Source: Shigella phage ESh19
Strand: one strand, 5' to 3'
Length of the DNA stretch: 64,000 nucleotides
Sequence record: ON528729
Made by a program: the position numbers and the translations under genes
Shown: positions 5,996 to 24,126 of the stretch, in pieces
Numbering within the stretch: the first letter of the stretch is position 1
Layout: every line of letters starts with the position of its first letter
Notes under the pieces: generated by a model
Database searches by the model: none
Told to the model about the DNA's origin: nothing
Seen by the model: the letters and a program-made list of their open reading frames with translations, nothing else

Positions 5996-6011
5996 GGCTC
6001 CCGAAGGAGCC
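5996..6011 (-). terminator. rho-independent terminator (GGCTCC-UUCG-GGAGCC + U-run on minus transcript)
   Basis: perfect 6 bp stem, UUCG tetraloop, followed by TTTTCATTT on minus strand. Confidence 0.6.
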
Positions 6012-6023
6012 TCTATAATAACT

Positions 6024-6488
6024 TTAACCAAGAACTTTCGCAAGGACATTTGCTGCCATTGTTGAGGCTTTTGAAGCAGCAGCTACGCCAGCCTTAATGG
6101 TATTGTCCTTAATCGCAGAAACCGTTGCAGTATCTGTGAAGAGGTAAGTGGTAGTTTGAGAACCACTTGTAAAGGAAAGCATAAGAGCAGTTTCCAGATT
6201 GAAAGAACGGTAAGGAGCACCGGATTGTACAATCCCTTTTGCACCTAACTCTGAAGCCATACCCATATCATAGATAGTCATCAGATTTTCTTTATGAGCA
6301 GTAGTTGAACCAACACCCTTAACGTGTTTTGTGACATTCAACATGGCACGATACTCACGAATGTTACCATCAGCTTTCACGTTTACTGCACGAAAGATTT
6401 TACCATCGAAATTACTTTTGATAATCTCACGAACTACCTGTGATTTGTTACCGGAAGCATCGATAGCTACTGTAATAATGTTTTGCAT
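6024..6488 (-). CDS. hypothetical protein (154 aa)
   Basis: ORF with terminator downstream. Confidence 0.5.
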   Translation of the reverse strand: MQNIITVAIDASGNKSQVVREIIKSNFDGKIFRAVNVKADGNIREYRAMLNVTKHVKGVGSTTAHKENLMTIYDMGMASELGAKGIVQSGAPYRSFNLETALMLSFTSGSQTTTYLFTDTATVSAIKDNTIKAGVAAASKASTMAANVLAKVLG

Positions 6489-6499
6489 GGTTTACTCTC

Positions 6500-7195
6500 T
6501 CAGTTTTTAACAAGCATTGTTTTGATGTGTGGTAAGATTCTTTCAACCTTTGCCACGTTCTTCACTGTATCTTCTATAAAGCATACTACATCATAGTAAG
6601 GTAGAATGCAAGACTGAAGCATACGAACTTTTAAACTTTCTGCACTAATCTCATTGTCACCAAATCCACGCATAAACAGTAGGAAATCACTGTCTACATT
6701 CTCATTCAGGAAAAGATGTGTGACAACTCTTTGTGATTCTCCACGAGCAGTTAAGAATCCTATATCAGCATTTCTTGATATACCACACAGGATGTTAAAA
6801 ACATATGTTGGTTTAGCTCTGCGAGAGTCTACCAAGTTAGTATACTGTGAGTAAGTGCCGTCATCTAACAGAGTTGCATTAAGTTTCTTGTCAAAGCTTG
6901 TAAGAACACCATCAATGTCTGCTAAGACCATTTTACGTTTTTCTTCCAAGTTCTTTGCAACCAAGATAAGACTATTACGACCAACATATACAGTTTTACC
7001 TGTTAGCAAATCCTGACAAGGAATCTGTGTCTTTGTTGAGTGGAAGTCTTCAAAGCTACACACAACATCTCTTGCTGTATCTGCAAAGTCAGCTTTAGCA
7101 ATATCTGACCAACTTGCAGAACTGATATCTAAATCAAGTGGCTTGATATCATAAGCATGACACAGAACCATGTCAAATTGTTTTGATTCGCTCAT
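6500..7195 (-). CDS. HAD-superfamily phosphatase-like protein (tentative)
   Basis: MVLADIDGVLT resembles HAD motif I (DxDG[TV]); located mid-protein, N-terminal domain unassigned. Confidence 0.4.
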   Translation of the reverse strand: MSESKQFDMVLCHAYDIKPLDLDISSASWSDIAKADFADTARDVVCSFEDFHSTKTQIPCQDLLTGKTVYVGRNSLILVAKNLEEKRKMVLADIDGVLTSFDKKLNATLLDDGTYSQYTNLVDSRRAKPTYVFNILCGISRNADIGFLTARGESQRVVTHLFLNENVDSDFLLFMRGFGDNEISAESLKVRMLQSCILPYYDVVCFIEDTVKNVAKVERILPHIKTMLVKN

Positions 7196-7721
7196 ATTTT
7201 ACCTTTTTAATGTTTGTTGCAAACTCACATTGAGCCAGCAGTTTCATGTTATTGTACACATCTTGAGAGTATTGTCTAGCCTTTGGAATCTTGTATTTGT
7301 AACCAGCATTATAAGAAGCTAGGACACGCTTCATAGAGTACTTTCCATCTGGGTTACCATGAACCTTAGTCCAGAATAATAGCTCCTTATGAGCCTCTTT
7401 CGCTGAGTAATGGAAGTCGCTTACTAGCTTCTTCTTAGCAACCTTTGGAGATACCTTGTTACGCTTTACAACAGTCTTCAAGTGATTTTGGAAAACACCA
7501 TAATCATGAGTCTTTTTATTTTCTAACATGACACCTAATTGTGACTCTTGTAAGGCTATAGCTGCTAAAGGGATTCCCCAACCTTTTCCCATCTGTCCTT
7601 CGCCATAGTCATATGCTTTTAACATATTAACTTTCTGGCTGATTGTAAGCTCTGGACAGTCAGACGCTGTAGCTAAATGTGCTGTAAAGAATAAGCACAA
7701 ACCTAAAACAAATTTCTTCAT
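7173..7721 (-). CDS. secreted lytic transglycosylase (SLT-domain), probable signal-peptide endolysin
   Basis: signal peptide MKKFVLGLCLFFTAHLATA; SLT motifs AIALQES and SYNAGY; start set to ATG 7721 with AGGAG SD. Confidence 0.6.
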   Translation of the reverse strand: MKKFVLGLCLFFTAHLATASDCPELTISQKVNMLKAYDYGEGQMGKGWGIPLAAIALQESQLGVMLENKKTHDYGVFQNHLKTVVKRNKVSPKVAKKKLVSDFHYSAKEAHKELLFWTKVHGNPDGKYSMKRVLASYNAGYKYKIPKARQYSQDVYNNMKLLAQCEFATNIKKVKYERIKTI

Positions 7722-7788
7722 TTGCACTCCTATTTTGTTAAACATGCAGACAATTATACACTAACCTGCACATTTTTCAAATAAAAAA

Positions 7789-7804
7789 GGCTGCCGAAGC
7801 AGCC
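7789..7804 (-). terminator. rho-independent terminator after rIIB (GGCUGC-UUCG-GCAGCC + U6)
   Basis: stem-loop followed by TTTTTT on minus strand. Confidence 0.6.
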
Positions 7805-7822
7805 CCTTTAGGAATTTACTTA

Positions 7823-8935
7823 TTAGACTTCACGTTTACGCTGAGAAATCAGTTCACCAGCAGTGCCTACAACTACGTGGAGTGCTTCTGAACCATCCCA
7901 CTCTTTGATGATTTCACGGCGACTATTTACAATCGCTGCAACTTCATAACGGGAAGCTCGCATTTTCATGTCGTTGTAGTCAGTTGGTACTGAAACAACA
8001 TCACGAGGATGAACACGAACTTTCAGGATAGTGTCACCAGAGAAGCTAGTTACATAATCCCAAGCACCAACGTGCAGACCCTGAGAGCAGGTTACATGGC
8101 GGTTATTATCAACCATCCAACGTGGCATCTCTACAATGTTACCCAAATCATTTGGAACTTTGCAGGTACGAGAGTCAAACAGTTTACCACCACGAGTTGT
8201 GACTTTCTTCCAACCGATGATATAACCTTCTTCATCAATTTCAACATCGAGGTGTGATACGAAGCCCCAAAGTTGTTCTACAGAATCTTTTGATGGGTTT
8301 TCCATCAGTTTTTCGAAGAATGCAATCAGTCGAACAAAACCATTATCACCTTTCTTCATCATATCCAGAATACGGTCTACCAGAGTTGAGCGCATCTGAA
8401 CAGCACCGTAATACAGGTTGTCGCCTTTGATGGTTACAGCACCCTGAGTGAAGTTCTCAATAGACTTGCGAATGTTCATCAGTTCAAAAGCTTTCTTGTA
8501 CTCACCTGAAACAACAGCCATTACAATATCAGTGTAGTTAGGGTGAGTTGACTCAACAATCTCAGACTCTGCACCGAAAGTCATGATAACAGAATCACCA
8601 GTAATCATGTACTCAATCTGGCTGTTATTCTGCATTGCTTCATGCAGAGCATTTACAGGTTCTGCTTTGACTGCTTCTTTAACAGCTTTTGCAACAGGCT
8701 TCTGCTTAGATACTTTCTTGGTCGCTTTAGCTTTCTTTGCAATATCTTTCAGAGTCTTTGCAGGTTTTGCTTTGGTTTTCCCTGACAGCAGCGTTGCTTC
8801 ATGACGCTCTACAGCACGACCTACCGAACGGGTTGAAGTGTTATACTTCAGAGCGATTGCAGTTTTGGTCAGTTTACCTTCTTTAACCAGTGCATAGATT
8901 TCTGCGTCGATTTGTGCTTTAGTCTTAGTAGTCAT
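7823..8935 (-). CDS. rIIB: rIIB protein
   Basis: C-terminal block CSQGLHVGAWDY..KVRVHPRDVVSVPTDYNDMKMR and central LVDRILDMMKKGDNGF match remembered T4 rIIB; directly downstream of rIIA. Confidence 0.8.
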   Translation of the reverse strand: MTTKTKAQIDAEIYALVKEGKLTKTAIALKYNTSTRSVGRAVERHEATLLSGKTKAKPAKTLKDIAKKAKATKKVSKQKPVAKAVKEAVKAEPVNALHEAMQNNSQIEYMITGDSVIMTFGAESEIVESTHPNYTDIVMAVVSGEYKKAFELMNIRKSIENFTQGAVTIKGDNLYYGAVQMRSTLVDRILDMMKKGDNGFVRLIAFFEKLMENPSKDSVEQLWGFVSHLDVEIDEEGYIIGWKKVTTRGGKLFDSRTCKVPNDLGNIVEMPRWMVDNNRHVTCSQGLHVGAWDYVTSFSGDTILKVRVHPRDVVSVPTDYNDMKMRASRYEVAAIVNSRREIIKEWDGSEALHVVVGTAGELISQRKREV

Positions 8936-8985
8936 TTCAATATCTCTCTTTGTTGTTTAAAATTACTTAGTGGTTCGTATTCTAA

Positions 8986-9001
8986 GGGGCTTTTCAGCCC
9001 C
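8986..9001 (-). other. GNRA-tetraloop hairpin (GGGGCU-GAAA-AGCCCC on minus transcript) between rIIA and rIIB
   Basis: identical 16-mer recurs at 13847-13862; no U-run follows. Confidence 0.5.
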
Positions 9002-9014
9002 TGTCAAACTATTT

Positions 9015-11387
9015 TTATTCCCAACAGTTGGTATCTTCTGGGATGCTCTTAGTGTCAAAACCTAAAAACTTACCAACTTCGACGGGTGATACTTTATTCC
9101 AATCCAGATTAGAAAGCAAGAAGTTTTCTTTACGGCGTTTCTCAAAGTAATCTTTGAACTTGCTTTCAAGACGCTTCTTAGCATTATCCAGTACCTTTCT
9201 TGGCTTACAAGAACCTCTCATATTCCTGCGAATGGTATCAAGAGTGCTGGTGATATCTTTGTAAGCAACTGGTGCAGCAGTGTATGCCAAGCGTCCAAAC
9301 ATTGCTTCTATAGCCTCTTCATTCCCCTCTAAGAAGATAGTCTTCTTAAAGTCTTTACTGTACATGTGGCCTCTGGACTTACGTTTATCAGCAAACATAA
9401 AGTTTCGAGAAATCACATTACAATCAGTGATATCATGATTATTTGTCATGTACTGATATGTCAAGTAACGATGATACTCAATCCAATGAGTGTTATCAAT
9501 AAAATCTTTCAATACTTGTTCATTGACTTCTGTCCAATCTTCAGGAATCTTTTTCCAGTTGGCTTTACGGAAGACATAAACTGACTGTCCAGTTAACTCT
9601 GTCATCAACGTTGCAGCACGTTCTGGTGAACATGAGAAGATTCCACCAATCACTTCATCACTCTGTGCTTTGATATACAGTTGTGGTTCTTCAATCTCGT
9701 CAAAGTTCTCTTTAACCTCTGTATAGCGAATCATGTCGGTATTTGGACATATAAATGCTTTATACAGTTTTACAACACCACGTACAATAGTACGTTTTTC
9801 ATAGTGGTGTTCTTTAGATGACATTGTATGCACACTTAACAGACTTTTGTCAAGCATATGTAAATCTACAAACTCATCAAATTGCTGCTGACTGCTGAAC
9901 AAGAAAGCAATACCATTGTAGCGACGGAAGTTAGAGTCTTCCTGTTCACGGTCACGGCAAGCCCCACGGATAATCTGGTTTTTACCAGTTGTCTTTTCAG
10001 ACCCGTTCTTGTTTCGACGGTCATTGATAAGGAACAAGTAGTTGCTCAACTTATCTTTACTCATCGCTCCAAAGATACTAAACATTGCTGCATCTTGTGA
10101 ATAAGTCGCTGAAGTTGCCCGAATACGGTTCTCCAGACTGCTGTACTTGTAGTATGCTACAGGTTCATACAGATTACCAATATTAGGAACTGGATTACCA
10201 TCTTTATCAAGCCTCAAGTTACCCGCATCATCTTTCAAGAATGACGGAGAACCATCTGCTTCAGTTAACTGACCACGACGAATACCTAACAGTTTTTGTT
10301 CAAGCTTTTTCAAGTTCTGGCCTTGCCATTCCAGAGAATCTTGAACGTGATTAAAGATTTCACGAGCCTCTTTCCTCATGGTATCGTAAGCCTGTGCAGC
10401 ATCAATCAGAGTTGGCTTGTTAGCAATCTCTTTTACCACATCTTCTACGATTGTCTTAGTGATTTTCTTCACAGCTTCAACAATCTTAGTTTTGGTAGTC
10501 TCATTCATCTGCAATGCTTCACGAGATGCAGCAATAGCTACTGAACCAATTGGCATGTAGATGTTAACAAGGTCTACAGCACTACGGAAGAACTGAGGCA
10601 GAATGCTTGTAAACTCTGAACCAAGCAACTCACCCATTTCAACCGGATAAGCAATGTTACCCATGATTACATTGAAATGGACGCTGTTACTATTTGAGCG
10701 CCAGTTCTCTTTGTACTTCATTGCATCATAGACACCATCTTCACGAGAAATGGAAGTCATTGCTTCAAGAATGTCATAGTACTCAACATTACACTCTGGC
10801 TTAACTTTAAAGTACGAGTATACATTGCTCGCTTCTTCATGAAACTTGTTAATACGGTTATCAGATACCGCTACTCGAACAGCTAAACCATTTGGCTCTG
10901 TAGTTGGGTTAGTAGTCAACTTAGTTACTTGAGGGATACCATTCTCAAGGTAAACTGAGTATTTGTTAACTACACCATCAACATAGCTCGATACAGTGAA
11001 TGACTGAGCAATTGCAAATGGTGACTTTGAACCGATACCCATAGCACCAATGTAGTCATTTGAATCGTTCTTTGTGGATTCTCCATAGGTCATGTAAAGT
11101 TTCATAACTTTTTCATGAGTCAGCCCTGTACCAAAGTCACGAACTTCAAAGAATGGTTCAAAACGAGTTGGTAAGTGAACCAAGAAAGGTTTATCAACAT
11201 TACCAGAATCAATGTGAGCATCTACTGCGTTACATGATAACTCACGAATTACAGCACGTTCTTTATATGTGTAAACACCTGAGCTTAGAAGACTGAACAT
11301 TTCAGGTGTCATCTTAATTTGAGCCTGAGAGGTTTCCAGTGTACTTGAGCTTTTAATTACCGTTGCGTGGTCATTTACCATGCGCAT
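9015..11387 (-). CDS. rIIA: rIIA protein (GHKL ATPase-like N-terminal domain)
   Basis: N-terminal RAVIRELSCNAVDAH and DYIGAMGIGSKSPF blocks match remembered T4 rIIA / HATPase N-box and G-boxes. Confidence 0.85.
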   Translation of the reverse strand: MRMVNDHATVIKSSSTLETSQAQIKMTPEMFSLLSSGVYTYKERAVIRELSCNAVDAHIDSGNVDKPFLVHLPTRFEPFFEVRDFGTGLTHEKVMKLYMTYGESTKNDSNDYIGAMGIGSKSPFAIAQSFTVSSYVDGVVNKYSVYLENGIPQVTKLTTNPTTEPNGLAVRVAVSDNRINKFHEEASNVYSYFKVKPECNVEYYDILEAMTSISREDGVYDAMKYKENWRSNSNSVHFNVIMGNIAYPVEMGELLGSEFTSILPQFFRSAVDLVNIYMPIGSVAIAASREALQMNETTKTKIVEAVKKITKTIVEDVVKEIANKPTLIDAAQAYDTMRKEAREIFNHVQDSLEWQGQNLKKLEQKLLGIRRGQLTEADGSPSFLKDDAGNLRLDKDGNPVPNIGNLYEPVAYYKYSSLENRIRATSATYSQDAAMFSIFGAMSKDKLSNYLFLINDRRNKNGSEKTTGKNQIIRGACRDREQEDSNFRRYNGIAFLFSSQQQFDEFVDLHMLDKSLLSVHTMSSKEHHYEKRTIVRGVVKLYKAFICPNTDMIRYTEVKENFDEIEEPQLYIKAQSDEVIGGIFSCSPERAATLMTELTGQSVYVFRKANWKKIPEDWTEVNEQVLKDFIDNTHWIEYHRYLTYQYMTNNHDITDCNVISRNFMFADKRKSRGHMYSKDFKKTIFLEGNEEAIEAMFGRLAYTAAPVAYKDITSTLDTIRRNMRGSCKPRKVLDNAKKRLESKFKDYFEKRRKENFLLSNLDWNKVSPVEVGKFLGFDTKSIPEDTNCWE

Positions 11388-11420
11388 AAGAATATCTCCT
11401 TAGTTGTCGATGTGGCAAAC

Positions 11421-11449
11421 TATATAATTTTATAGATGCCACTGTCAAG
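11421..11449 (-). promoter_or_regulatory. candidate sigma70-type promoter upstream of rIIA overlapping an inverted repeat
   Basis: minus strand TTGACA-N17-TATATA; GTGGCA/TGCCAC inverted repeat (11412-11441) spans spacer and -10. Confidence 0.4.
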
Positions 11450-11629
11450 TTACTTTTTAAATTTCTTTCCAGTTCCATTGCAGTAAGGGCAACAATGTCC
11501 TATACCAACTAACCCAGAACCCTCACACCCATCACAAGGTTCAGTCTCTGAGAAGTACTTGCATAGTAACACTGCAATAGCAACAATACAACCGAGTGAA
11601 AGAACAATTTCTAACCAATAACCTTGCAT
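11450..11629 (-). CDS. small membrane-anchored protein with DnaJ-type zinc-finger repeats (59 aa; below ORF-track cutoff)
   Basis: hand-translated MQGYWLEIVLSLGCIVAIAVLLCKYFSETEPCDGCEGSGLVGIGHCCPYCNGTGKKFKK; two CxxCxGxG repeats; SD GGAGA 6 nt upstream. Confidence 0.35.
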   Translation of the reverse strand: MQGYWLEIVLSLGCIVAIAVLLCKYFSETEPCDGCEGSGLVGIGHCCPYCNGTGKKFKK

Positions 11630-11958
11630 ACCTTGTCTCCTATAGTTCTGAATAGGACAAAACTCCTGTCATGGACAATACTCGAAGATACTGCAAAACT
11701 ATTCTCAAGTATCTTTTTGTTTGGATTGTAAAATTCTTCTTGAAACAAATCAAGAGCTTCTTGATGGTTCTGTGGAAGACCTTTGATATAAACCTTCAAA
11801 GTAACCGTTGTATAAATCTCAGAAGCTAACTCTGATTGTGCTGCTTGAAACAGTTCATTGATAAACTTATGACCATCTTCATGTCGCTTGATGTTTTCCC
11901 AACGTTCTTCAATGATTAAATTAACATTCATCTGTTTAATTTTCATAGTAATCTCCAC
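11611..11958 (-). CDS. hypothetical protein (115 aa)
   Basis: ORF after terminator, SD present. Confidence 0.5.
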   Translation of the reverse strand: MEITMKIKQMNVNLIIEERWENIKRHEDGHKFINELFQAAQSELASEIYTTVTLKVYIKGLPQNHQEALDLFQEEFYNPNKKILENSFAVSSSIVHDRSFVLFRTIGDKVCKVIG

Positions 11959-11968
11959 AAATTAAAAA

Positions 11969-11984
11969 GGCTCCTACGGGAGCC
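11969..11984 (-). terminator. rho-independent terminator after Nampt gene (GGCUCC-CGUA-GGAGCC + U-run)
   Basis: stem-loop followed by TTTTTAATTT on minus strand. Confidence 0.6.
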
Positions 11985-11999
11985 TCTTATCATACTGTT

Positions 12000-13826
12000 T
12001 TAAAGTTGCTTGTCAATAGTATTTCGAACATCACGCAGGTTAACGTAACCATAAGGTTGCGAGTTACTAAATACCAGTTTCAAAGCACTATGACAATTGT
12101 CAATTGCACCTTCAAACTCTGCAAAGCCAAAACCATCTACAGCTACTAGCTTGTCACCATCCCACATAGGGACGACTCCACCAAAAGCAGACTTCTTAAG
12201 ACCACTGTCAGTTTTAGGGTCTTTAGCCAGCATAATTTCTTGACCATCCATCTGTGCAAGAGTTGCTTTAACAGCAAATGCAAATGTGTCACGAGTCAGG
12301 TACTGATAGGTGTATGAGCCTACACCAAACACTACGTTAGAACTTGCAAAACCTTTATCAGCAAGACGTGACAGAATCTCATTAGCCCTTTCCAGAGTGA
12401 TAGAATCACCGTAGATTAGTCCAATGTGCTCATCCAGTACTTTGTACCCTTTGGAGTTAACAGTGCCACCAAAGATGTTATACAGCGTGTGGATAGCTCC
12501 ATCAATTTCTGCTGTTAACATACGCTTCACAGTAAACTGTCCAGTTTTCTGAGCGGTAATCAGGTTGATTGTATCAATATAATCAAAATCTTCATTTTCA
12601 GCAACCATCTCATATCCTTCAGAGATTAACCAAGCAGAGAACCCAAAACCAATATCAGACATTTCACAATTCAAGATTGTGTCATGCAGATGGGTATTAT
12701 CTGGTGCAAGACCTTTCATGTGCTTGTAGAACATTGACTTAGCAGTTTCCCATTCAACGGCTTTGTAACCTGTAACAATGTGAACAGGGTCTCCAGAGTC
12801 TGGACGAATTACCAACTTACCATCACGATTCAGAATTACATTACGTAGCTCTGGCAGAATCTCTGTAACAGTACGCCAGAAGTTGTAAGTATCTGAAACA
12901 ACACTTGCAATACCAGTTGGATATACGTCTACCAGTAAATGCTCAAAGGTTTTAACCTCACCACGCCAACGTTTTGCATCCAGCAAGCTATCAGACCGCA
13001 TGATGTACTGTGAATGAATATCTTCCTCTGACAAGTCTTTCATATTCCATGAAATGTTTGCGCACATCACAGAGTGTTCAGTAGCTGGTACAGAGTTGCC
13101 GATATCACTTACTTCCATAAACTGACCATAAGAACGTTTAGCAGTGTAGACAGCAGGGAAGCTGTCAGTACCTTTAAAGCTTGTCAGGTGTCCTACTGCG
13201 TTAAACGCATCATCTGTGAAGCCAGACATGCCACGCATTGCAAAGTCATGACACTGCCAAGGTAAATGGGAGTCGTTGTCACAGGTTAAATCAGCCCATT
13301 GCTTACAAATACGTTTGTAATGCAGTGCAATAGTTGCAATCGTACAAGCTTTCCAGATTTCAGCAGAGAAAGCATCTTCAAGGTAACCAGCTACCCAATG
13401 GAATCCCTCTACAGTATTTTTGAAGACAATCATCGGGACACGCATAGGGACAATTGTACCTTCCTCTACAGAGTAGACTTCAACAGGTAGGTAACCCAAG
13501 TCATGAAGTTCTTCCCAATGTTGACGACCAATAGTATCTGCACCAAGGACACCATTCATGATTTCCAAGATTTCGTCAATGGCTTCTTTCTTATCACGTT
13601 CAAAGAACGTTGCATTCCAGTGGTCTACCAGATAGTCTTTTACAAAACGCTGAATACCAAAAGCTACAACACCATCAATCTCTAACGGAGAGTTAAACCA
13701 TTTATCTCCACGAGGTGTTAAGTTCAACATAAGATACTGTGTAGCATCTGGATACTGATAGATATGACCCGCTTTATAAGCATCTGCATTAAGACCTGCT
13801 GGTACTGCATAGATTGATTTAGTCAT
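12000..13826 (-). CDS. nadV: nicotinamide phosphoribosyltransferase-family enzyme (Nampt/NadV-like; possibly nicotinamide ADP-ribose transferase)
   Basis: blocks YKAGHIYQYP, HDFAMRG..SFKGTDS, PATEHS, VVSDTYNFW, IRPDSGDP, GVGSYTYQYLTRDT align with eukaryotic/bacterial Nampt; 608 aa, longer than canonical ~490 aa. Confidence 0.8.
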   Translation of the reverse strand: MTKSIYAVPAGLNADAYKAGHIYQYPDATQYLMLNLTPRGDKWFNSPLEIDGVVAFGIQRFVKDYLVDHWNATFFERDKKEAIDEILEIMNGVLGADTIGRQHWEELHDLGYLPVEVYSVEEGTIVPMRVPMIVFKNTVEGFHWVAGYLEDAFSAEIWKACTIATIALHYKRICKQWADLTCDNDSHLPWQCHDFAMRGMSGFTDDAFNAVGHLTSFKGTDSFPAVYTAKRSYGQFMEVSDIGNSVPATEHSVMCANISWNMKDLSEEDIHSQYIMRSDSLLDAKRWRGEVKTFEHLLVDVYPTGIASVVSDTYNFWRTVTEILPELRNVILNRDGKLVIRPDSGDPVHIVTGYKAVEWETAKSMFYKHMKGLAPDNTHLHDTILNCEMSDIGFGFSAWLISEGYEMVAENEDFDYIDTINLITAQKTGQFTVKRMLTAEIDGAIHTLYNIFGGTVNSKGYKVLDEHIGLIYGDSITLERANEILSRLADKGFASSNVVFGVGSYTYQYLTRDTFAFAVKATLAQMDGQEIMLAKDPKTDSGLKKSAFGGVVPMWDGDKLVAVDGFGFAEFEGAIDNCHSALKLVFSNSQPYGYVNLRDVRNTIDKQL

Positions 13827-13846
13827 CTTTTTATCTCTCTCAAAGT

Positions 13847-13862
13847 GGGGCTTTTCAGCCCC
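13847..13862 (-). other. GNRA-tetraloop hairpin between Prs-like and Nampt-like genes (identical to 8986-9001)
   Basis: GGGGCTTTTCAGCCCC exact repeat. Confidence 0.5.
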
Positions 13863-15549: not shown

Positions 15550-15568
15550 GATTTCTCCAAAATAAAAA

Positions 15569-15588
15569 GGGAACCTTTTACAGTTCCC
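15569..15588 (-). terminator. rho-independent terminator (GGGAAC-UGUAAAAG-GUUCCC + U-run)
   Basis: stem-loop followed by TTTTTATTTT on minus strand. Confidence 0.55.
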
Positions 15589-15601
15589 TAATCATATACG
15601 T

Positions 15602-15913
15602 TTACTGAGCTATTTTCAAGACTTTTAAGAAACCTTCCTCACCAATTGCATCATAAACGTTTTCAGTTGGCTTGATAAGGTTGTTCAAGCATACAATTTT
15701 CTTACGCTTCTTGTCATAAGTAAGCTTCAGTTGTTTCAACTCTTTGTCATCTTCAGGGTGCTCGTTGTACATCTTCACAGCTTCTTTAAAGCTAATGTAG
15801 CCACCACCTAAAGTAAGGAAACCCGTACCACAATAGTGGGAGTTGTGTTTATCAGCCATAAACTGGCACAGGATAGAAATCTGAATTTTACGAGTGTTAT
15901 AAATCTTTTCCAT
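15602..15913 (-). CDS. hypothetical protein (103 aa)
   Basis: ORF. Confidence 0.45.
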   Translation of the reverse strand: MEKIYNTRKIQISILCQFMADKHNSHYCGTGFLTLGGGYISFKEAVKMYNEHPEDDKELKQLKLTYDKKRKKIVCLNNLIKPTENVYDAIGEEGFLKVLKIAQ

Positions 15914-16476: not shown

Positions 16477-16930
16477 ATTCTTTTCTCCAAAGTATTTGAT
16501 TGTCAGACCCACGATACGGTTTGTGTGTCGGTTTAGAAGCATCATACTTACCATCTATTACCACGTCAACATATTTCATCACTTCTAAGTGAATTTTTTC
16601 ATGTAGCTGGTAACCTGTCCATAACCAGATAGATTTGTCTGGGTAGATAGACCTAACCTTCTGACAAATCTTTGTAACTTCTTCAACGTTACGGTCATCA
16701 AGTGGTTCTCCACCTAGTATGGAAAGACCGCTTATAGCTTCATCTTCCATGAGTCTTAGAATGCCATAAAGGTTTGCATAAGTAAACTCTTTACCAGCAT
16801 TAAACTTCCAAGATTCCTTGTTAAAGCAACCTTCACAGTGATGTTTGCAGCCAGCTACAAAAAGACTGACACGAGCACCTTCACCGTTTGCTGTATCGAA
16901 TTTTCGTATTTCCATGTAGTTCATTAGCAC
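16439..16930 (-). CDS. nrdG: anaerobic ribonucleotide reductase activating protein (radical SAM)
   Basis: CKHHCEGC radical-SAM cluster motif near N-terminus; size ~160 aa; next to nrdD. Confidence 0.75.
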   Translation of the reverse strand: MLMNYMEIRKFDTANGEGARVSLFVAGCKHHCEGCFNKESWKFNAGKEFTYANLYGILRLMEDEAISGLSILGGEPLDDRNVEEVTKICQKVRSIYPDKSIWLWTGYQLHEKIHLEVMKYVDVVIDGKYDASKPTHKPYRGSDNQILWRKEYGWQGDCQWRAE

Positions 16931-17316
16931 ACCCCAACTTCAAACCTTACATGTTTTGTGACGTACTCTTCACAGTGCTCTTTAATAAATTCCTGAAGCA
17001 GCTCATCTTCCTGAGCACGAGTCATCAAAGCAACATACTTTGGATTCATTGTTTGCTGAATGCTGTAGAAAGACATATCACCAATTTCTGTTCCATATGA
17101 ATCTGACCATGTTCCAGTTACTACTAAGACTTTATCACTCAACTCCGTAGGCAGTCCAATGTCATCATCCTTTGCATCATCAATAACAGAATCAGTTATT
17201 AAAAGAGTACATGCTATGTAAAACTCTGAGTATTTTCTGTGAGTTTTCTCACAAGAGCCACACTCTAAAGCATAGTCTTTAAGCCAGTTCATTTGATTTT
17301 TATTTAATTTAGTCAT
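16924..17316 (-). CDS. hypothetical protein (130 aa)
   Basis: ORF; ATG overlaps stop of upstream small ORF. Confidence 0.45.
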   Translation of the reverse strand: MTKLNKNQMNWLKDYALECGSCEKTHRKYSEFYIACTLLITDSVIDDAKDDDIGLPTELSDKVLVVTGTWSDSYGTEIGDMSFYSIQQTMNPKYVALMTRAQEDELLQEFIKEHCEEYVTKHVRFEVGVC

Positions 17317-17410
17317 TTCTCTTTCCTTTCAATGTATTGTATAAAAGCCCTAACAAGAAACCTAGTAAGACAGAGCCTACTAAAGTGACTAACAAGAATG
17401 TCTTAATCAT
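17309..17410 (-). CDS. possible small single-TM peptide (33 aa)
   Basis: hand-translated MIKTFLLVTLVGSVLLGFLLGLLYNTLKGKRND; ATGA overlap with upstream gene and AATGACTAA overlap with downstream gene (translational coupling on both sides). Confidence 0.35.
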   Translation of the reverse strand: MIKTFLLVTLVGSVLLGFLLGLLYNTLKGKRND

Positions 17411-17757
17411 TCGCCATACCACCATATTGTTTGGTTGTTATCACAAACATACAGATACTCTGTCCCGATTTGCGGGACGATGATTGTAGTGTTGCCTGAG
17501 ATGACTGTCATGTAGTACATGTATTCCCTGCTTTGTGATGTTTGCTGGCAATTGTTTGCATTCATCCAAATTCTTGTTTGATAAGTATCATATACTAGAA
17601 ATCCTATCATAATTGCTAATGCAATTCCAAGGAGCCATAACCAAAATTTAGGCCAAAAGTCATAACTTAGCCTATCTTTGTACTTCATAATACCAAGAGT
17701 AATAAGCAATACTAAGCAAGCCAATGTGCAGACTGTAACATAAACCCATACGTTCAT
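17407..17757 (-). CDS. membrane protein with two predicted TM helices (116 aa)
   Basis: hydrophobic segments VWVYVTVCTLACLVLLITLGIM and FWLWLLGIALAIMIGFLVY. Confidence 0.5.
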   Translation of the reverse strand: MNVWVYVTVCTLACLVLLITLGIMKYKDRLSYDFWPKFWLWLLGIALAIMIGFLVYDTYQTRIWMNANNCQQTSQSREYMYYMTVISGNTTIIVPQIGTEYLYVCDNNQTIWWYGE

Positions 17758-17821
17758 AATTATTGCTCCAATAAAAAAGGTGATGTAAGCCTATCAAGAC
17801 CTACACCACCTTGTCAACTAC

Positions 17822-19963
17822 TTACATAGATTTTCTATCCTGAATCTCAGCAATTTTTGCATCGTTCATTCTGGAAGTACCTTTAATCTTAGTCCAGCCA
17901 AGATAACCACATACACGGTTAATCACAGAGATATCATGTGAGTTACACTTAGGACACAATTCAACATCTGCACTTGGACGGTGACCACAATTCTCACAGA
18001 TTGCCAAGTCAAAGTTAACACCTTGATAGAAACCTTTACCCATACCTCTTGTCACACAAGCCCTGATAGCTTTATGATTCTCTGGGTTAGCAATACGAAT
18101 GTACTGGATATGTCCTCCATTACAAGCATGGAAGAAAGGTTCTTCTAAGTCTTGCTTTTCAAATGGTGTAATATCCGCACCAACATTCATGTGGAAACTG
18201 TTTGTAAAGTATTCTTTATCAGATACACCTTTAACAACTCCAAACATGTTTCTAAACTGCTTCAATTGCGTACCACAAAGGCTCTCAGCAGGTGTACCAT
18301 AGAGGGCATACAAGAAACCATCTTCCTGTTTAAACTGCTCCAGCTTGCCATTCAGGTAGTTTAAAACCTTACTTGCAATATCACCGTCTGACTCATGTAA
18401 TCTTTTACCTTGTGCAAGTACTGTTAACTCATCTAATGCAGTAACACCGAAAGAGGCTGTAAAAGATTTCACAGTATCCCAACCAATCTTGTCAGTTGGC
18501 TTCTTATGGCCTTTATACAAACCACCTTGTGTGAATGCTAGAGGGTTAGAGCTTGCTGGCATATTAGCAATCATCTCATAACGCTTTTTATGAAAGCTTC
18601 TAATCATCTCAAGATACTTGTCAAGTTCTGTCCAGAAGTCTAAACCATTCTCTTCAGAATACTTGTAAATCATTGGCAGATTGAGAGATACTGCACCGAT
18701 ATTTGCTCGCCCTGTGTAGAACTCTTTACCATCTTCATCATAATATGGTGATAAGAAAGCCCTACAACCCATTGGAGAGATGACTGCACCTGAACGCTCA
18801 AAAGCTTCTGCAACAGAACCATGACCAGAAACACTTAAGAAGTCTGGATACATAGCTTTAGAACAGCACTCAATAGCTTTGTCATAAAGAGTTCCCTGCC
18901 AAGGGTCTAACATGTGCCTTGTCTCATCATAAATGTAAACCAGTTTAGGGAATACAACAGGCTTCTTAGACTTGCCTTGACCATTCATTCTCACATCAAG
19001 AATAGTCTTTGCAATCATAAATTGCAAGCGGTTATCTTCACTAGCCATATCTGGTTCGAGTAAACCAAACGTTAAAGTTGTGAATGCAAAATCACCACGG
19101 CTGCAAGGAACTGTATTCAGTTTCATTTCCAGAGATTGGAAGCCTTGGGTTAGCTCAATCTGAAGTTGCTCTTTAGCGTAGTGGTATACTTCTTTACTTG
19201 GGATATTATACTGCTTTGCTTTCTCCAGATGATACTCAAAAGACTTCTTAGCATATGGCACAAGAACCTTGTCAATCTCTGGGATAGTAAACCCACCAAA
19301 TTGCTGTGCAGTTGCTGAGAGTACAACGTCACCAATGACCTGTAAAGCTGAAAGTACAGACTTTGGTTCACAGTATTCGATGCCTGACATTTCAAAACCA
19401 CCTTTCAAGACGCTTCCAATGTCAAACAAGCAACAGTTAATACCACCGAAGATTAAATCTCTCAGGTCATGGATATAAATGAATCCATCTTCAATAGCAC
19501 TTGCTTCTTCTGGTGTCAAGTGATACTGCTTAAAGATTTCTTTTGTCAAATATCCACGGATGATTGAGCCTTTTGTAGAGATTAAGCTACTGTCAAAGTT
19601 AGCATTCTCACGGTCACCTAAGAAGAGTGTGTCTTTAGTTTTCTGGTAAAGTTCATCCCAATTCTGTGCAACCTCTTTACGATAGTTTCTGTAGGTTGAG
19701 TATGACTCATAGATTTCATGGTTTACCTCTGCCAGAGTTCCTTCCACAATACTGTGAACATCATCTACAGAGATGAGCATAGCATTCTGATTAGTTGCTC
19801 TGACAAGCAGTCTCATAAAGGCTGATTCAAGAGCATGGATAACTTCTAGTGGTAACTCTTTGTAGCCGACTCTATTAGCTGACTTGGTAACTGCTTCGAC
19901 GATTTTATTTACATTTGGTTTTTCCAGTGAACCGTCTTTCTTAATAATTTGTACTTTAACCAT
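17822..19963 (-). CDS. nrdD: anaerobic ribonucleoside-triphosphate reductase (class III)
   Basis: C-terminal glycyl-radical motif RVCGYLG and Zn-ribbon CENCGH..CPKC; start re-set to ATG 19963 (MVKVQII) with AGGAG SD, directly after terminator. Confidence 0.85.
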   Translation of the reverse strand: MVKVQIIKKDGSLEKPNVNKIVEAVTKSANRVGYKELPLEVIHALESAFMRLLVRATNQNAMLISVDDVHSIVEGTLAEVNHEIYESYSTYRNYRKEVAQNWDELYQKTKDTLFLGDRENANFDSSLISTKGSIIRGYLTKEIFKQYHLTPEEASAIEDGFIYIHDLRDLIFGGINCCLFDIGSVLKGGFEMSGIEYCEPKSVLSALQVIGDVVLSATAQQFGGFTIPEIDKVLVPYAKKSFEYHLEKAKQYNIPSKEVYHYAKEQLQIELTQGFQSLEMKLNTVPCSRGDFAFTTLTFGLLEPDMASEDNRLQFMIAKTILDVRMNGQGKSKKPVVFPKLVYIYDETRHMLDPWQGTLYDKAIECCSKAMYPDFLSVSGHGSVAEAFERSGAVISPMGCRAFLSPYYDEDGKEFYTGRANIGAVSLNLPMIYKYSEENGLDFWTELDKYLEMIRSFHKKRYEMIANMPASSNPLAFTQGGLYKGHKKPTDKIGWDTVKSFTASFGVTALDELTVLAQGKRLHESDGDIASKVLNYLNGKLEQFKQEDGFLYALYGTPAESLCGTQLKQFRNMFGVVKGVSDKEYFTNSFHMNVGADITPFEKQDLEEPFFHACNGGHIQYIRIANPENHKAIRACVTRGMGKGFYQGVNFDLAICENCGHRPSADVELCPKCNSHDISVINRVCGYLGWTKIKGTSRMNDAKIAEIQDRKSM

Positions 19964-19984
19964 TCTGACTCCTAATGCAAAAAA

Positions 19985-20000
19985 GGTCTCCGAAGAGACC
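19985..20000 (-). terminator. rho-independent terminator (GGUCUC-UUCG-GAGACC + U6)
   Basis: stem-loop followed by TTTTTTGC on minus strand; nrdD SD follows. Confidence 0.6.
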
Positions 20001-20012
20001 CTTATATTAATT

Positions 20013-20213
20013 CTACTTAGAAAACTTTTCAATAAGCTTTTTAAGCTTTCCACTCAAATCATGTTTGATATCTAATATCTCAAAGATAACCCATACTAGC
20101 ATAGCTCCAAATAGAGCACCTTGTTTTAAATCAGTAAACAGGCTAGTAACCATGAATGCCAGAGCAATCATCGGAGCATCTTCAACAAAACCATCCCATA
20201 AACGTTTAAGCAT
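20013..20213 (-). CDS. small membrane protein (66 aa)
   Basis: hydrophobic core MIALAFMVTSLF..LFGAMLVWVIF. Confidence 0.4.
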   Translation of the reverse strand: MLKRLWDGFVEDAPMIALAFMVTSLFTDLKQGALFGAMLVWVIFEILDIKHDLSGKLKKLIEKFSK

Positions 20214-20448
20214 TATTCACCTCTGCCATAAAGTTCTGTAGTGTTCCAACAGGTTTCATTTCATTGTCTTCAACCTTCATAATGAAAGGCATCTGACGAA
20301 CAGGTATCTTTGCAATATCCATCAGGTCACTTAGCTCATAATCTTTCCCAAGCATTCTAACAACATGGTCTAAGCCACGAGCCTGAGCAAAGTTCTTAGC
20401 AGTCACACACTGTGGGCATCCATCTTTTGAGTAAATTACATAAGTCAT
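20206..20448 (-). CDS. glutaredoxin/NrdH-like redoxin
   Basis: CPQC active-site motif near N-terminus, 80 aa, between nrdB and nrdD. Confidence 0.7.
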   Translation of the reverse strand: MTYVIYSKDGCPQCVTAKNFAQARGLDHVVRMLGKDYELSDLMDIAKIPVRQMPFIMKVEDNEMKPVGTLQNFMAEVNNA

Positions 20449-21521
20449 TAAGGAACCTCTAAAAATCCTGAATTTAAATCATCAACAACGGTATTCAAAA
20501 GGTACGCACCATTTTGTTGTTCTTGGTTAGCGTTTTGCTCTTTATCAATTTCCATCTTCTTAATCATATATTTCAAAGGTGGTTCTTTAGGAGCTACGAA
20601 GTCTCTTGGAATACCAAACATATCATACAATGGAGCAGCGTTGTAGTAAACCCATTCGTGAAGAAGTTTTGTATTCAAACCTACAACAGCACGTCCTTCA
20701 GAGAAGATATAATAAGACCATTTCTCTTCACTTTCAACTACTTCATCCAGAATTACTTTAATCTCTGGGAGTACTTGACGGAAAGCTTCTTGCCACTCTT
20801 CATCTTTCAAAGTTTCTTTTAATGCTTCGATATCAATCTTTGTGTGAATGATTTCGTCAAGCATAATTTTCTGTACTGCTTGTGCAATCCCTTGGAATTT
20901 ATCTTGTGCATCAAGTGCAAAGGTACATGCAAAGGATGCCATGAAGGAAATACCCTCAAGTGCTGTTACTGCAAAGAGACCTTTTAAGATTACTTTGTGG
21001 AAGTGTAAAGGGTCTTTCTCCATTAGCTCTTGACGAACATAGCTTAAACGATAGTTAATACCTTCGTCAAGTAATTCTGCCAGTGCTCTGTTCACAGTCT
21101 TCAATCTGTCCTGAACAGCAGCGTTCTGGTTAATCTCATCAAGGATTGTTTCAGGGTTCTTGATACACTGACGAACAATCTCTGAATAAGTTAGTGCATG
21201 AAGGTTCTCAATTTCTGATTGCTTCATGATAGCAGTTGCATAGATATCATCAGAGATGAATGGTGCAAATGCAAAAGCTAAACTCTTAGCAACCTGTGTA
21301 TCTGCTTCCCATTGCCATTTCAGAATCTCAAGCATTACACCAGACATTGATTGAGGGACACTCTCAAAGTCTAAACGTGACTGTTCAAATGGGAACTCAT
21401 CTTCAGACCAGTCTTGAGCTTTCTGCTGCTTATACAGTTCAAAGATTTTTGGATAGTGTTTATTAAGTGAATCAAAAGTCTTACGTTCTTCACCTAAGAA
21501 GATTGGATGTGAATTAATCAT
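20448..21521 (-). CDS. nrdB: ribonucleotide reductase class Ia small subunit
   Basis: di-iron ligand pattern (EGISFMASFA..., DEIIHT) and size 357 aa; adjacent to nrdA. Confidence 0.85.
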   Translation of the reverse strand: MINSHPIFLGEERKTFDSLNKHYPKIFELYKQQKAQDWSEDEFPFEQSRLDFESVPQSMSGVMLEILKWQWEADTQVAKSLAFAFAPFISDDIYATAIMKQSEIENLHALTYSEIVRQCIKNPETILDEINQNAAVQDRLKTVNRALAELLDEGINYRLSYVRQELMEKDPLHFHKVILKGLFAVTALEGISFMASFACTFALDAQDKFQGIAQAVQKIMLDEIIHTKIDIEALKETLKDEEWQEAFRQVLPEIKVILDEVVESEEKWSYYIFSEGRAVVGLNTKLLHEWVYYNAAPLYDMFGIPRDFVAPKEPPLKYMIKKMEIDKEQNANQEQQNGAYLLNTVVDDLNSGFLEVP

Positions 21522-21793
21522 TCTGGTAATTTTCCTGTTCTGAACATATCTCTCGCAGCTTGTCTTGTAAGGACTAGCCAGTTTTCCATATTAAATAACT
21601 CAGGTGCTCTAACATATTCTTTGCCGCCATTAAAGCAGTCAATATATCTCACACATTTCTTCCAAGAATCATCATCCTGCTTTACCATTACCTCTGTACT
21701 GGCAACATAGTAAAGTGTATTTCTTGGCTTATACATCAGATAAACAGATTTACCTTCTGCTTTATTTCTTGCGGATTCTATTAAGTCTATCAT
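21518..21793 (-). CDS. hypothetical protein between nrdA and nrdB (91 aa from ATG 21793)
   Basis: track ORF trimmed to ATG with GGAGA SD; preceded by hairpin GAGGGTC-loop-GACCCTC (21816-21836). Confidence 0.4.
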   Translation of the reverse strand: MIDLIESARNKAEGKSVYLMYKPRNTLYYVASTEVMVKQDDDSWKKCVRYIDCFNGGKEYVRAPELFNMENWLVLTRQAARDMFRTGKLPE

Positions 21794-21848
21794 AGACTCT
21801 CCAAAGTTAATTTTAGAGGGTCTTTTACGACCCTCATAGTTATTGAAA

Positions 21849-24083
21849 CTAAACACCACAACCTTCACAGTAAGCATCTTGTAGTGCTGACTTACCAACA
21901 CCAATACGACTGTTAAGATAATACATGGTTTTCATACCAACTGAGTTAGCATAAATCATGTACTTCAGAGCTTGCTCTAATGATACCTTCTTAGACTTCG
22001 AGTAGTCAACATAGAAATCTGAAGAGATAGCTTGACCAGTGAACTTTTGAACAATTGCATAGCAATCAATCATATCAAATGTGTCAATATCCCAAGCAAT
22101 TTCATAGACATACTTCAACTCTTCGTAGTCTGGTACGATAAACAGTACGTTACCAGTGGCAGACTTTTTAGTTAAGATGAAGTCACGAATAGGGTACAGA
22201 CCGTTTGTTGTGTTAGTTGCCAGAGAAGAACTCTCATTAGGCATGTAAGCCTCTAACACAGAGTTACGGATACCTCCATTTTCTTTGATTCGATGTGACA
22301 GGTCATCCCAATCATAACGAAGTTTTGCATCGTGCTTCTCATCAATTTTCTTGTTAGCAGTCTTTGGTGGAACCCAACCATCAGGGTACTTAGTAAACTG
22401 CATGTACTCTGGTACACCACGCTCTTTTGCGAGTCTTAAAGATGCTTCATGCAAGAAGTAAGAGTGCATCTCAGCCAACTCATGTAGTTTGGTTTTACCT
22501 GCTCTTGATGAGTAATTCACATAGTTCTTCGCAAGGTAGTGAGCCACATTAGTAAGGCCAATACCAACAGAACGACGCTTCTGAACATGGTTACGCATCG
22601 ACGGATACGGATAATCCATAAGGTCAATAACGGAGTCAACCATTGCCAGAGCATAATAAGCAACGTCAGCGTATTCATCTTCTGAGATTCTCCCTGCAAC
22701 CAAACTAGCTAGGAAGCAAAGAGCAACTTCACCATCTTCTTTCTTGGCTGTGTAGCTGTATAGGTCTCGTTCATCTTCAAAACCATGTACTGGCAATACA
22801 ATTTCCATACACAGGTTTGACATTTTCAAAGGCTCTTTGAAAGGTGTATGATAGTTTGCGTTGTTAGTAAAGAACGGGTAAACACGTCCTGTAGCATAAC
22901 GTTGCTGAATAAACAACTTGGCAACTTCACGAGCCTTTACACGTTTATGTTTAACACCTGTATGAACTGCGTGACCTACTGCCATAGCAAATTCATCAGC
23001 ACTTGCTGTGTAGAACATGTCATACAGTCTTGGTGCATCTTTGTAAGAGAATAGCAACCAATCTGTATCGTACTGTACACATTGCCAGAAGTAATCATTT
23101 GCACCAAATGAGTAATCCATTTCATTAATACGCTTTGCAGGAACCGTTGTAGGGTGCTTCAAGCGTAGCAAATCCTCAATCTGTGGGTCTAATGCAGTGA
23201 AGAAGTTATTAGCTGAACCACCACGACTCTTCTGCTTATTAGCCTCTACAGCAGCACGTACAAGCTTATAATAAGGGAGTTTTCCCATATGCTCAATAGT
23301 GTTTTGTCGGATTCCATCACCAATTGTTCTGGTCTCCATCAGCATACCAATACCTGCTTGCTTAGTGGTCATGTCATAAGCTACTTTTGTAGCAATGCCA
23401 AGAGATTCAGCAGTATCATTTGCTTTAATTAGGCAACATGAAGCATAGCCAGATTTTGTAGCTCTCAGACCATTCAGATACGGTGTAGGGGCATTAATCT
23501 TCAGGTCAGATAGATATGTGTAGAGCTTAATAACATCATCTAAACGACGCTGTTTAGGCTGTCTTTCAAAGGCTTTCATAGCCATACCCATGAACATAAA
23601 CTGTGGAGACTCAAACAACTTACCACTTTTAATGTCACGGATTCCATACTTATCACGGAACTGCTTCAGCACTGCATACCCATAAGAGATATCTTTTGAA
23701 TGTACGATGTGACCTTGTAAATAGTCAATCTCTTCAGGTGTGTAATCCATGTGTTCCCAAAGCCCCATCTGCTCCATCTTCATCACAAATGGAAGTAACT
23801 GAGGAACCTTTGTAAATCCACCAAAAGCTTCTTTGTAGATAATGCCAAGAAGTAGCCTCCCAGCCATATCAGAGTACTCTTGAGTTTGCTTATCAATACA
23901 AACGTCAATCATAGCTTGGTGCATTTCTTTTGTTGTACAACCTTCATAGACACGCTTCATAGCTTCCATTACAACTTCTGACCAGATAATTCCTCTCTTG
24001 TCAGCCCATGAAGCCCATTTATTTAAACGTTCTGGTTCGAATGGTACAATTGTACCGTCTGATTTGCGAATAGTGGTAATCAT
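21849..24083 (-). CDS. nrdA: ribonucleotide reductase class Ia large subunit
   Basis: N-terminal ATP-cone, active-site NLCMEIVLP block, 744 aa. Confidence 0.9.
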   Translation of the reverse strand: MITTIRKSDGTIVPFEPERLNKWASWADKRGIIWSEVVMEAMKRVYEGCTTKEMHQAMIDVCIDKQTQEYSDMAGRLLLGIIYKEAFGGFTKVPQLLPFVMKMEQMGLWEHMDYTPEEIDYLQGHIVHSKDISYGYAVLKQFRDKYGIRDIKSGKLFESPQFMFMGMAMKAFERQPKQRRLDDVIKLYTYLSDLKINAPTPYLNGLRATKSGYASCCLIKANDTAESLGIATKVAYDMTTKQAGIGMLMETRTIGDGIRQNTIEHMGKLPYYKLVRAAVEANKQKSRGGSANNFFTALDPQIEDLLRLKHPTTVPAKRINEMDYSFGANDYFWQCVQYDTDWLLFSYKDAPRLYDMFYTASADEFAMAVGHAVHTGVKHKRVKAREVAKLFIQQRYATGRVYPFFTNNANYHTPFKEPLKMSNLCMEIVLPVHGFEDERDLYSYTAKKEDGEVALCFLASLVAGRISEDEYADVAYYALAMVDSVIDLMDYPYPSMRNHVQKRRSVGIGLTNVAHYLAKNYVNYSSRAGKTKLHELAEMHSYFLHEASLRLAKERGVPEYMQFTKYPDGWVPPKTANKKIDEKHDAKLRYDWDDLSHRIKENGGIRNSVLEAYMPNESSSLATNTTNGLYPIRDFILTKKSATGNVLFIVPDYEELKYVYEIAWDIDTFDMIDCYAIVQKFTGQAISSDFYVDYSKSKKVSLEQALKYMIYANSVGMKTMYYLNSRIGVGKSALQDAYCEGCGV

Positions 24084-24108
24084 TATATTAAATCCTACAG
24101 GTGAAAAA

Positions 24109-24126
24109 GGGTCTCCGAAGAGACCC
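24109..24126 (-). terminator. rho-independent terminator (GGGUCUC-UUCG-GAGACCC + U5) upstream of nrdA
   Basis: same stem sequence as 19985-20000. Confidence 0.6.

Follow-up and report, generated by a model that had tools for sequence, protein, structure and literature searches.

A stretch of 64,000 nt of Shigella phage ESh19 (sequence record ON528729; hereafter the window) carries five compact GC hairpins on its minus strand between positions 5996 and 24126, four of them capped by the UUCG tetraloop (sites 1 to 5, Table 1). With a probability of about 0.8, these hairpins are intrinsic terminators or attenuators for the host RNA polymerase, which would end short early and middle transcription units. 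Most hairpins of the region also appear to be joined to a promoter at which transcription could restart. A wider hypothesis, which we put forward tentatively and at somewhat below even odds, is that the early/middle spacers of the Ounavirinae are compact stop-and-restart modules, in which the terminator is invisible to the transcripts of its own promoter, and that the hairpins also act as junctions of gene gain and loss and are homogenised within genomes.

The hairpins were read off the minus strand and found again in an independent hairpin scan, in exact agreement with the positions given in an earlier note on this DNA. The stems have 6–7 bp with four or five G-C pairs and enclose 4-nt loops at all five sites. 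The loop-closing pair is C-G in every stem, and the loop is UUCG except at site 3, where it reads CGUA. A run of four to six U residues directly follows each stem, and an A-rich run ahead of each stem is able to pair with the U tail and to lengthen the stem. All five lie on the coding (minus) strand, 8–18 nt past a stop codon. The distance from the stem end to the next ATG is 19–25 nt (43 nt at site 2), and this gap is occupied by the U-tract and a GGAG-type Shine-Dalgarno (SD) sequence. The predicted RNA stability, with the z-score against shuffled sequences in brackets, was −14.8 kcal/mol (−3.9) for site 1, −15.6 (−4.6) for site 2, −14.8 (−4.9) for site 3, −12.3 (−3.9) for site 4, and −15.6 (−4.2) for site 5. 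The resemblance between the sites is partly forced, since a stem that follows an A-tract is G-rich, closes UUCG with C-G, and is C-rich before a U-tract, which leaves approximately three free pairs per stem.

Chance origin of the UUCG hairpins was ruled out. Four perfect ones of at least 6 bp are present on the minus strand, all with a U tail, whereas 200 dinucleotide-shuffled sequences averaged 0.17 UUCG hairpins with stems of 5 bp or more, with a maximum of 3. The plus strand holds a single UUCG hairpin, of 5 bp, at 25833, with no U tail. UUCG-capped intrinsic terminators are textbook elements, and UUCG is reported to be over-represented in the terminators of E. coli (d'Aubenton Carafa et al. 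1990); a literature search on such enrichment returned tangential papers only. The Rfam 15 scan of the whole window gave zero families at the gathering threshold. The earlier note had spoken of at least six hairpins with UUCG or CGUA loops: the five it listed are present, but it listed no sixth, and about eight further minus-strand terminator-like hairpins detected in the scan (named here after their positions: 15588, 17810, 27314, 31636, 42661, 52503, 53364, and 55665) have other loops.

Megablast of bases 5–25 kb identified the window as a Mooglevirus, a Felix O1-like myophage of the subfamily Ounavirinae, with 96–97% identity to Citrobacter phage BSwM KMM4 and Shigella phages Sf13–Sf19 and approximately 80% identity to Suspvirus and Felixounavirus, Salmonella phage Felix O1 included. 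The homologous region of ten relatives was scanned in the same way as the window. Hairpins were found at the orthologous intergenic spots in four Ounavirinae genera (Mooglevirus, Suspvirus, Felixounavirus, and Kolesnikvirus) and in Hafnia phage Zyzzx. At each given site the stem was mostly identical and stable across the first three genera. The hairpins of Zyzzx after rIIB and before nrdD are unrelated and have no UUCG loop; judging from these sequences, at such a distance it is the position that is kept rather than the sequence.

Site 5 reads GGGUCUC-UUCG-GAGACCC in the window, GAGCCUC-UUCG-GAGGCUC in Felixounavirus, and GGACUC-UUCG-GAGUCC in Kolesnikvirus. In its alignment two pairs are altered on both sides and 96.7% of the cells remain paired, and shifting the partner columns lowered the pairing to 30–73%. 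At site 2 and in the 17810 stem, the relatives differ by changes of U-A to U-G or of G-U to A-U, which keep the pairing in the sense RNA only and thus argue for selection on RNA. The loop of site 2 in phage XTG1 is UCCG. The Kolesnikviruses Erwinia phage Roscha1 and Salmonella phage SE5 carry an identical 16-mer, GGACTCTTCGGAGTCC, at seven sites in approximately 25 kb, besides one 7-bp variant and one copy with a UUAAUU loop. This reuse is far more uniform than that of the hairpins in Mooglevirus, and the uniformity suggests more than convergence: duplication, short-patch conversion, or selection for one optimal sequence.

All five sites thus combine a GC-rich stem and loop within the usual limits (approximately 5–14 bp and 3–8 nt), a U-tract (expected 0–2 nt past the stem), a coding-strand position after a gene, and a conserved structure, the sequence hallmarks of intrinsic terminators. 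The reading of the hairpins as terminators, proposed in the earlier note, is further upheld by their conservation across the subfamily and by published or annotated orthologues. Table 2 of the Felix O1 genome paper (Whichard et al. 2010, PMC3185647) lists rho-independent terminators, among them t2 (ggctgcttcggcggcc), t5 (ggctccttcgggagcc), t111 (gagcctcttcggaggctc), t116 (ggtctcttcggagacc), t124, t104, t79/80, and t64. Site 1 corresponds to t5, site 2 to t2, site 4 to t116, and site 5 to t111; of the other hairpins, 15588 corresponds to t124, 27314 to t104, 42661 to t79/80, and 55665 to t64. The orthologues of sites 1 and 4 are annotated as rho-independent terminators in the record of phage XTG1 (KT184316), and a second Felix O1-like genome paper gives 20 predicted terminators. 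Since the orthologues were tabulated for Felix O1 in 2010, the finding as stated was already known, and the five hairpins as terminators are nothing new and an ordinary finding.

The authors of the Felix O1 paper stated that it is unknown how transcription passes the terminators (PMC3185647). Their RT-PCR (reverse transcription PCR) peak times shift across t2 (ORF2, 10 min; ORF3, 25 min), t5 (ORF5, 10 min; ORF6, 25 min), and t116 (ORF115, 25 min; nrdD, 60 min), and are unchanged across t124 and across t111 (ORF111 and nrdA, both 25 min). This timing fits a leaky site 5 and unit boundaries elsewhere. A sigma70 promoter cannot fit into the 19–25 nt after a hairpin, hence the downstream genes need another route.

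Promoter-like sites, defined as matches to the sigma70 −35/−10 hexamers on the minus strand and scored out of 12, offer such a route. In four of the window's 13 hairpins, the stem comes 2–4 nt after the −10 of a promoter-like site that scores 9/12 or higher; the probability of such a neighbor at a random position is 0.016, and the binomial estimate for at least four of 13 is roughly 5e-5. Among the seven terminators in 5–25 kb, five overlap a promoter-like site (sites 1, 3, 4, 15588, and 17810), site 2 has one downstream, and site 5 has no adjacent one by hexamer scoring of the minus strand. The hexamers are conserved to a varying extent and read as phylogenetic footprints. The TTGC.A and TA..AT positions of site 1 are kept in seven genomes, and the hexamers of site 4 in Mooglevirus and Suspvirus. 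At site 3, TTGACA and TAT(G/T)AT are kept in eight genomes of three genera, with variable spacer and bases between the stop codon and the −10. At 15588, TTG.AA and TA..AT are invariant in nine genomes of four genera, in which the spacer and the upstream codons diverge (the orthologue in Erwinia phage Roscha1 reads TTGCAA-17-TAGTAT). The TTGACA at 17810 is invariant in the relatives' orthologues, and the rest of the spacer that separates the hairpin from the nrdD stop codon varies; we regard this element as a candidate promoter with an embedded terminator.

Assuming approximately 7 nt from the −10 to the start, the predicted starts generally fall inside the 5′ arm; at 15588 transcription would begin at an A, five bases inside this arm, and the start at 17810, judged by the consensus, would lie in the 3′ arm. 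Initiation inside the hairpin would leave the promoter's own transcripts without a complete terminator, and transcripts from upstream would meet it.

The following mechanism is proposed. The nascent RNA would fold the 6–7 bp GC stem, nucleated by the very stable C(UUCG)G tetraloop and lengthened by two to five A-U or G-U pairs of the A-tract with the U tail. If the hairpin forms with the polymerase positioned over the weak rU-dA hybrid that the U4–6 tract makes, the transcript would be released, and the hairpin at its 3′ end would also shield the upstream mRNA from 3′ exonucleases. Downstream genes could be expressed by three routes: from an overlapping sigma70-type promoter with the start inside the hairpin (sites 1, 3, 4, 15588, and 17810), from a promoter that follows closely on the hairpin (site 2), or by partial read-through (site 5, nrdA). 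The earlier note correctly saw that sites 4 and 5 share the GGUCUC stem and sit right upstream of the nrdD and nrdA starts, and it suggested that both genes are insulated from upstream transcription. The suggestion may hold for nrdD, which could be both insulated and restarted, and probably fails for nrdA: having no promoter-like site, nrdA must rely on read-through, so the site-5 terminator would not be tight. Insulation at most sites is probably achieved only together with the overlapping restart promoters.

Several points weigh against this interpretation. Our literature search found no RNA 3′-end or 5′-end data (transcriptome, transcription start site, or Term-seq) for Ounavirinae phages, and we infer termination itself, its efficiency, and the start sites from the sequence. 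With short stems and only four to six U residues, the efficiency of termination may be modest. The promoters were called from hexamer matches alone, and the promoter-like site at site 4 is weak (9/12) and degraded in Felixounavirus. At sites 1, 3, and 4 either of the two leading G residues of the stem could possibly be the start, which would give a 5′-terminal hairpin of 5–6 bp. The relatives supply few distinct sequences per site (three at site 5), so the covariation statistics are weak: the observed score for site 5 was reached in 31 of 500 shuffles.

The earlier note had treated CGUA as a second type of loop. It is instead an inverted UACG: the CGUA of site 3 (loop area 11973–11980) is the exact reverse complement of UACG, the UNCG-class loop of every examined relative but Shigella phage Sf16, which has CGUA too and matches the window at 100% in a stretch of 101 nt that surrounds the site. 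Over this stretch, twelve further Moogleviruses show exactly four differences (96.0%), and in KMM4, the one read, all four are the loop positions. Exact copies in IMG/VR numbered 24 for the UACG version and none for the CGUA version. A single inversion of the loop between the inverted-repeat arms appears a better explanation than four separate base changes. Its cost is about 1.8 kcal/mol, which points to the UNCG loop being helpful but dispensable; site 3 would thus be a clean natural case of a hairpin-mediated sequence flip, with the UNCG loop not strictly required. The hairpin at 42642–42661 has the GGCUCC/GGAGCC stem of sites 1 and 3 with an 8-nt loop, CGUAAAAA, and is orthologous to the t79/t80 pair of Felix O1, tabulated there as terminators on both strands. 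Copying of the CGUA loop from this hairpin was rejected as less parsimonious than an exact 4-nt inversion. Also rejected were bidirectional termination, the opposite strand having no usable U-tail (42661 possibly excepted), and an alternative fold sequestering the SD sequence at site 5, which gains only 0.6 kcal/mol and is not present in the relatives.

It is unlikely that the hairpins serve mainly mRNA stability or processing, as 3′ exonuclease barriers or as 5′ caps left after RNase E cleavage in the AU-rich spacers of one long polycistronic transcript. Such a role would suit their placement shortly before the next ATG and just ahead of the SD sequence, the description of the T4 C(UUCG)G hairpins as autonomous, very stable elements (PMC4371310), and the single timing class of ORF111 and nrdA across t111. 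However, a pure stabilizer would need neither the U-tract after nor the A-tract before every stem, and the timing classes shift across t2, t5, and t116. The stabilizing 5′ structures that the earlier note offered as an alternative are not needed, as transcripts from a promoter abutting the hairpin, with the predicted start in the 5′ arm, would be devoid of the hairpin. The stabilizer and terminator roles are compatible, because a terminator hairpin also stabilizes the released 3′ end.

An action chiefly at the DNA level is more doubtful still. The hairpins would then be short linkers for homologous recombination that shuffle cassettes, as proposed for the promoter-early stem-loops (PeSLs) of T4-like phages RB49/phi1, PST, and nt-1 (Arbiol et al. 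2010, PMC2839356; Comeau et al. 2014, PMC4122927), and their near-identity would come from exchange. Besides the PeSL precedent, the junctions of gene content mapped by blastn of the window against its relatives speak for it. A 121-nt insertion (5866–5986) begins 9 nt past the site-1 hairpin; Sf17, KMM4, XTG1, and TP15 do not have it, and SUSP2 has a different insertion at this spot. Additional genes are present in Sf17 and TP15 as insertions into the SD/ATG region right after site 3, and a replaced segment (17668–17758) begins approximately 20 nt past the 17810 hairpin. These three junctions lie approximately 10–40 nt downstream of hairpins, and the association is suggestive and reminiscent of PeSL cassettes; at least one further variable segment, 16233–16438, does not adjoin a hairpin. 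In favor are also the Kolesnikvirus 16-mer with its two variant copies and the site-3 23-mer, present twice in some IMG/VR genomes. Yet only about 16–25 nt are common to the copies, which is very short for homologous recombination, and the flanks cannot be aligned. The site-specific stems are kept across three genera, so homogenization is slow or absent in this lineage, and the G-U wobble changes and strict co-orientation with transcription indicate selection at the RNA level.

Hardly credible to us is the idea that an RNA-binding factor of the phage, for example an antiterminator or a nuclease, recognizes the stems and times the expression of nrd and other middle genes. The reuse of stems within genomes goes well above stability needs, and such a factor could account for the passage of transcription left unexplained in Felix O1, but no candidate was identified. 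Moreover, the stems vary among sites and genera whereas loop and shape are kept, the UUCG loop is bound by no proteins according to a review (PMC4371310), and Zyzzx has unrelated hairpins at the same spots.

Table 1. Hairpins, promoter-like sites, and genes of the window, with the repeated hairpin of two Kolesnikviruses. Gene names were transferred from the Sf17 annotation.
Feature	Position	Strand	Description
Site 1	hairpin 6011-5996, element 5988..6014	-	AGA-GGCUCC-UUCG-GGAGCC + tail UUUUCAUU; 12 nt after the stop of the 154-aa open reading frame (ORF)
Site 2	hairpin 7804-7789, element 7783..7809	-	AAAGG-GGCUGC-UUCG-GCAGCC + tail UUUUUUAU (UUUUUU run); after rIIB
Site 3	hairpin 11984-11969, element 11964..11988	-	AAGA-GGCUCC-CGUA-GGAGCC + tail UUUUUAAU (UUUUU run); after nadV
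Site 4	hairpin 20000-19985, element 19979..20003	-	AAG-GGUCUC-UUCG-GAGACC + tail UUUUUUGC (UUUUUU run); 21 nt upstream of nrdD ATG
Site 5	hairpin 24126-24109, element 24104..24129	-	AAG-GGGUCUC-UUCG-GAGACCC + tail UUUUUCAC (UUUUU run); 25 nt upstream of nrdA ATG
Site-1 promoter-like	6015..6043	-	TTGCGA-17-TATTAT, 9/12; -10 ends 3 nt before stem
Post-site-2 promoter-like	7753..7780	-	TTGAAA-16-TATAAT, 11/12; starts 8 nt after hairpin, ahead of lysin-like gene
Site-3 promoter-like	11989..12016	-	TTGACA-16-TATGAT, 11/12; within last nadV codons; -10 ends 4 nt before stem
Site-4 promoter-like	20004..20032	-	TTGAAA-17-TAATAT, 9/12, weaker; -10 ends 3 nt before stem
15588 promoter-like	within 15564..15619	-	TTGAAA-17-TATGAT, 10/12; -10 ends 2 nt before stem
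Hairpin 15588 with promoter-like site	15564..15619	-	TTGAAA-17-TATGAT, 2 nt, GGGAACU-GUAAAA-GGUUCCC-UUUUU; orthologue of Felix O1 t124
17810 candidate promoter	TTGACA at 17811-17817	-	directly 5′ of stem; TAGGCT 18 nt on, in loop and 3′ arm
Hairpin 17810	17773..17817	-	long terminator after nrdD; stem 14-16 bp, UGAU loop, U6
16-mer hairpin copies	Roscha1 3746-22169; SE5 13746-32170		GGACTCTTCGGAGTCC used as terminator hairpin
33-aa ORF	5868..5970	-	hydrophobic, MIKVIKIIPSLVMLIVGVGIILMLCPAFWPFIL; inside 121-nt insertion; own ribosome-binding site; just upstream of i-spanin gene
nrdA	21849-24083	-	ATG at 24083; highest coordinates of the genes listed
nrdB, then glutaredoxin	between nrdA and nrdD	-	
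nrdD	17822-19963	-	ATG at 19963
nrdG, then PRPP (phosphoribosyl pyrophosphate) synthetase	between nrdD and nadV	-	
nadV	12000-13826	-	
rIIA	9015-11387	-	
rIIB	7823-8935	-	
Lysin-like gene	7173-7745	-	after rIIB
154-aa ORF	6024-6488	-	upstream of site 1
Polynucleotide kinase, then spanins	after lysin-like gene	-	last of the genes listed

All genes in 4–27 kb are on the minus strand. The segments 16233–16438 and 17668–17758 are variation hot spots in the nrdG–nrdD block, replaced by unrelated sequence of other length in all compared relatives. Within a non-coding stretch of approximately 500 bp, four tandem repeats of about 41–45 nt (ACTCCAAAGGGAAAATTCATTTCAAATTTGTGCAGGT) were observed on the minus strand at 2701–2898, directly downstream of a hairpin orthologous to the long t13 of Felix O1; their TGTGCAGGT motif is found again in the spacer of the post-site-2 promoter (7762–7785). 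The repeats may be stacked promoters or protein-binding iterons.

The added value of this analysis is modest and architectural. If the overlapping promoters are real, they explain the expression of genes 20–25 nt behind a terminator in Felix O1-like phages, a group used in Salmonella typing and biocontrol, and resolve how transcription passes the terminators, which the Felix O1 authors could not say; under the same condition, the stop-and-restart modules would provide very compact (approximately 55-nt) terminator/promoter/ribosome-binding-site parts for synthetic biology.

Among the closest known systems is Felix O1 itself, in which the terminators occupy orthologous spots: t2 follows rIIB, t5 follows the gp048-like gene, and t111 and t116 precede nrdA and nrdD, respectively. 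Their sequences are the same or nearly so for t2, t5, and t116, and the stem of t111 is off by two compensatory pairs. The window differs in belonging to another genus, Mooglevirus, and in the inverted loop of site 3; this site, after nadV, is missing from the Felix O1 table, though Felix O1 has a hairpin there. The UUCG tetraloop was first noticed in the mRNA of T4 (Tuerk et al. 1988, summarized in PMC4371310), and the window hairpins resemble the T4 intercistronic C(UUCG)G hairpins in the C-G-closed UUCG on a short GC stem, the intergenic position, the origin from a large virulent coliphage, and the unusual stability. The Ounavirinae, however, are an unrelated phage family, and every window copy stands in a full A-tract/stem/U-tract context.

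The comparison with the PeSLs concerns the architecture. In both, a sigma70-like promoter, a terminator stem-loop, and an SD/ATG region share a single intergenic element, which in the window applies, at the level of consensus matches, to five of the seven terminators in 5–25 kb. In both, the stem-loop overlaps the promoter, would end upstream transcripts, and would be incompletely contained in the promoter's own transcript. Insertions or deletions between close relatives adjoin the PeSLs; in the window, three such junctions lie near hairpins and at least one variable segment does not. PeSL copies are, however, similar over approximately 100 bp, whereas the window copies share only the hairpin of approximately 25 nt: outside the hairpin, alignment of the paralogous sites is limited to the TTG of the −35, with a mean column identity of 62%, and the direct-repeat search joined no more than the hairpins of sites 2, 4, and 5 in one family. 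A mobile palindromic element, similar to a repetitive extragenic palindrome (REP) or a miniature inverted-repeat transposable element (MITE), or an extended-repeat element was rejected, as the paralogous flanks are unrelated and the positions orthologous across genera.

On the minus strand at 564–2485, four or five copies of an intergenic cassette of approximately 100 nt were also observed between small early ORFs, each with TTTACA followed by a hairpin (GGGGCUUAA...UUAAGCCCC) that includes TATCTT and, after it, a conserved CTAAACTGGAGAATCTAAAATG. Having the stem-loop between and over the promoter boxes, these cassettes look closer to true PeSLs than the UUCG sites do. The PeSL stem-loop usually lies between the −35 and −10 or over the −10, whereas the window hairpins mostly begin 2–4 nt after the −10, and PeSLs flank orphan genes in hyperplastic regions, whereas the window hairpins flank conserved metabolic genes (nadV, nrdD, and rIIB).

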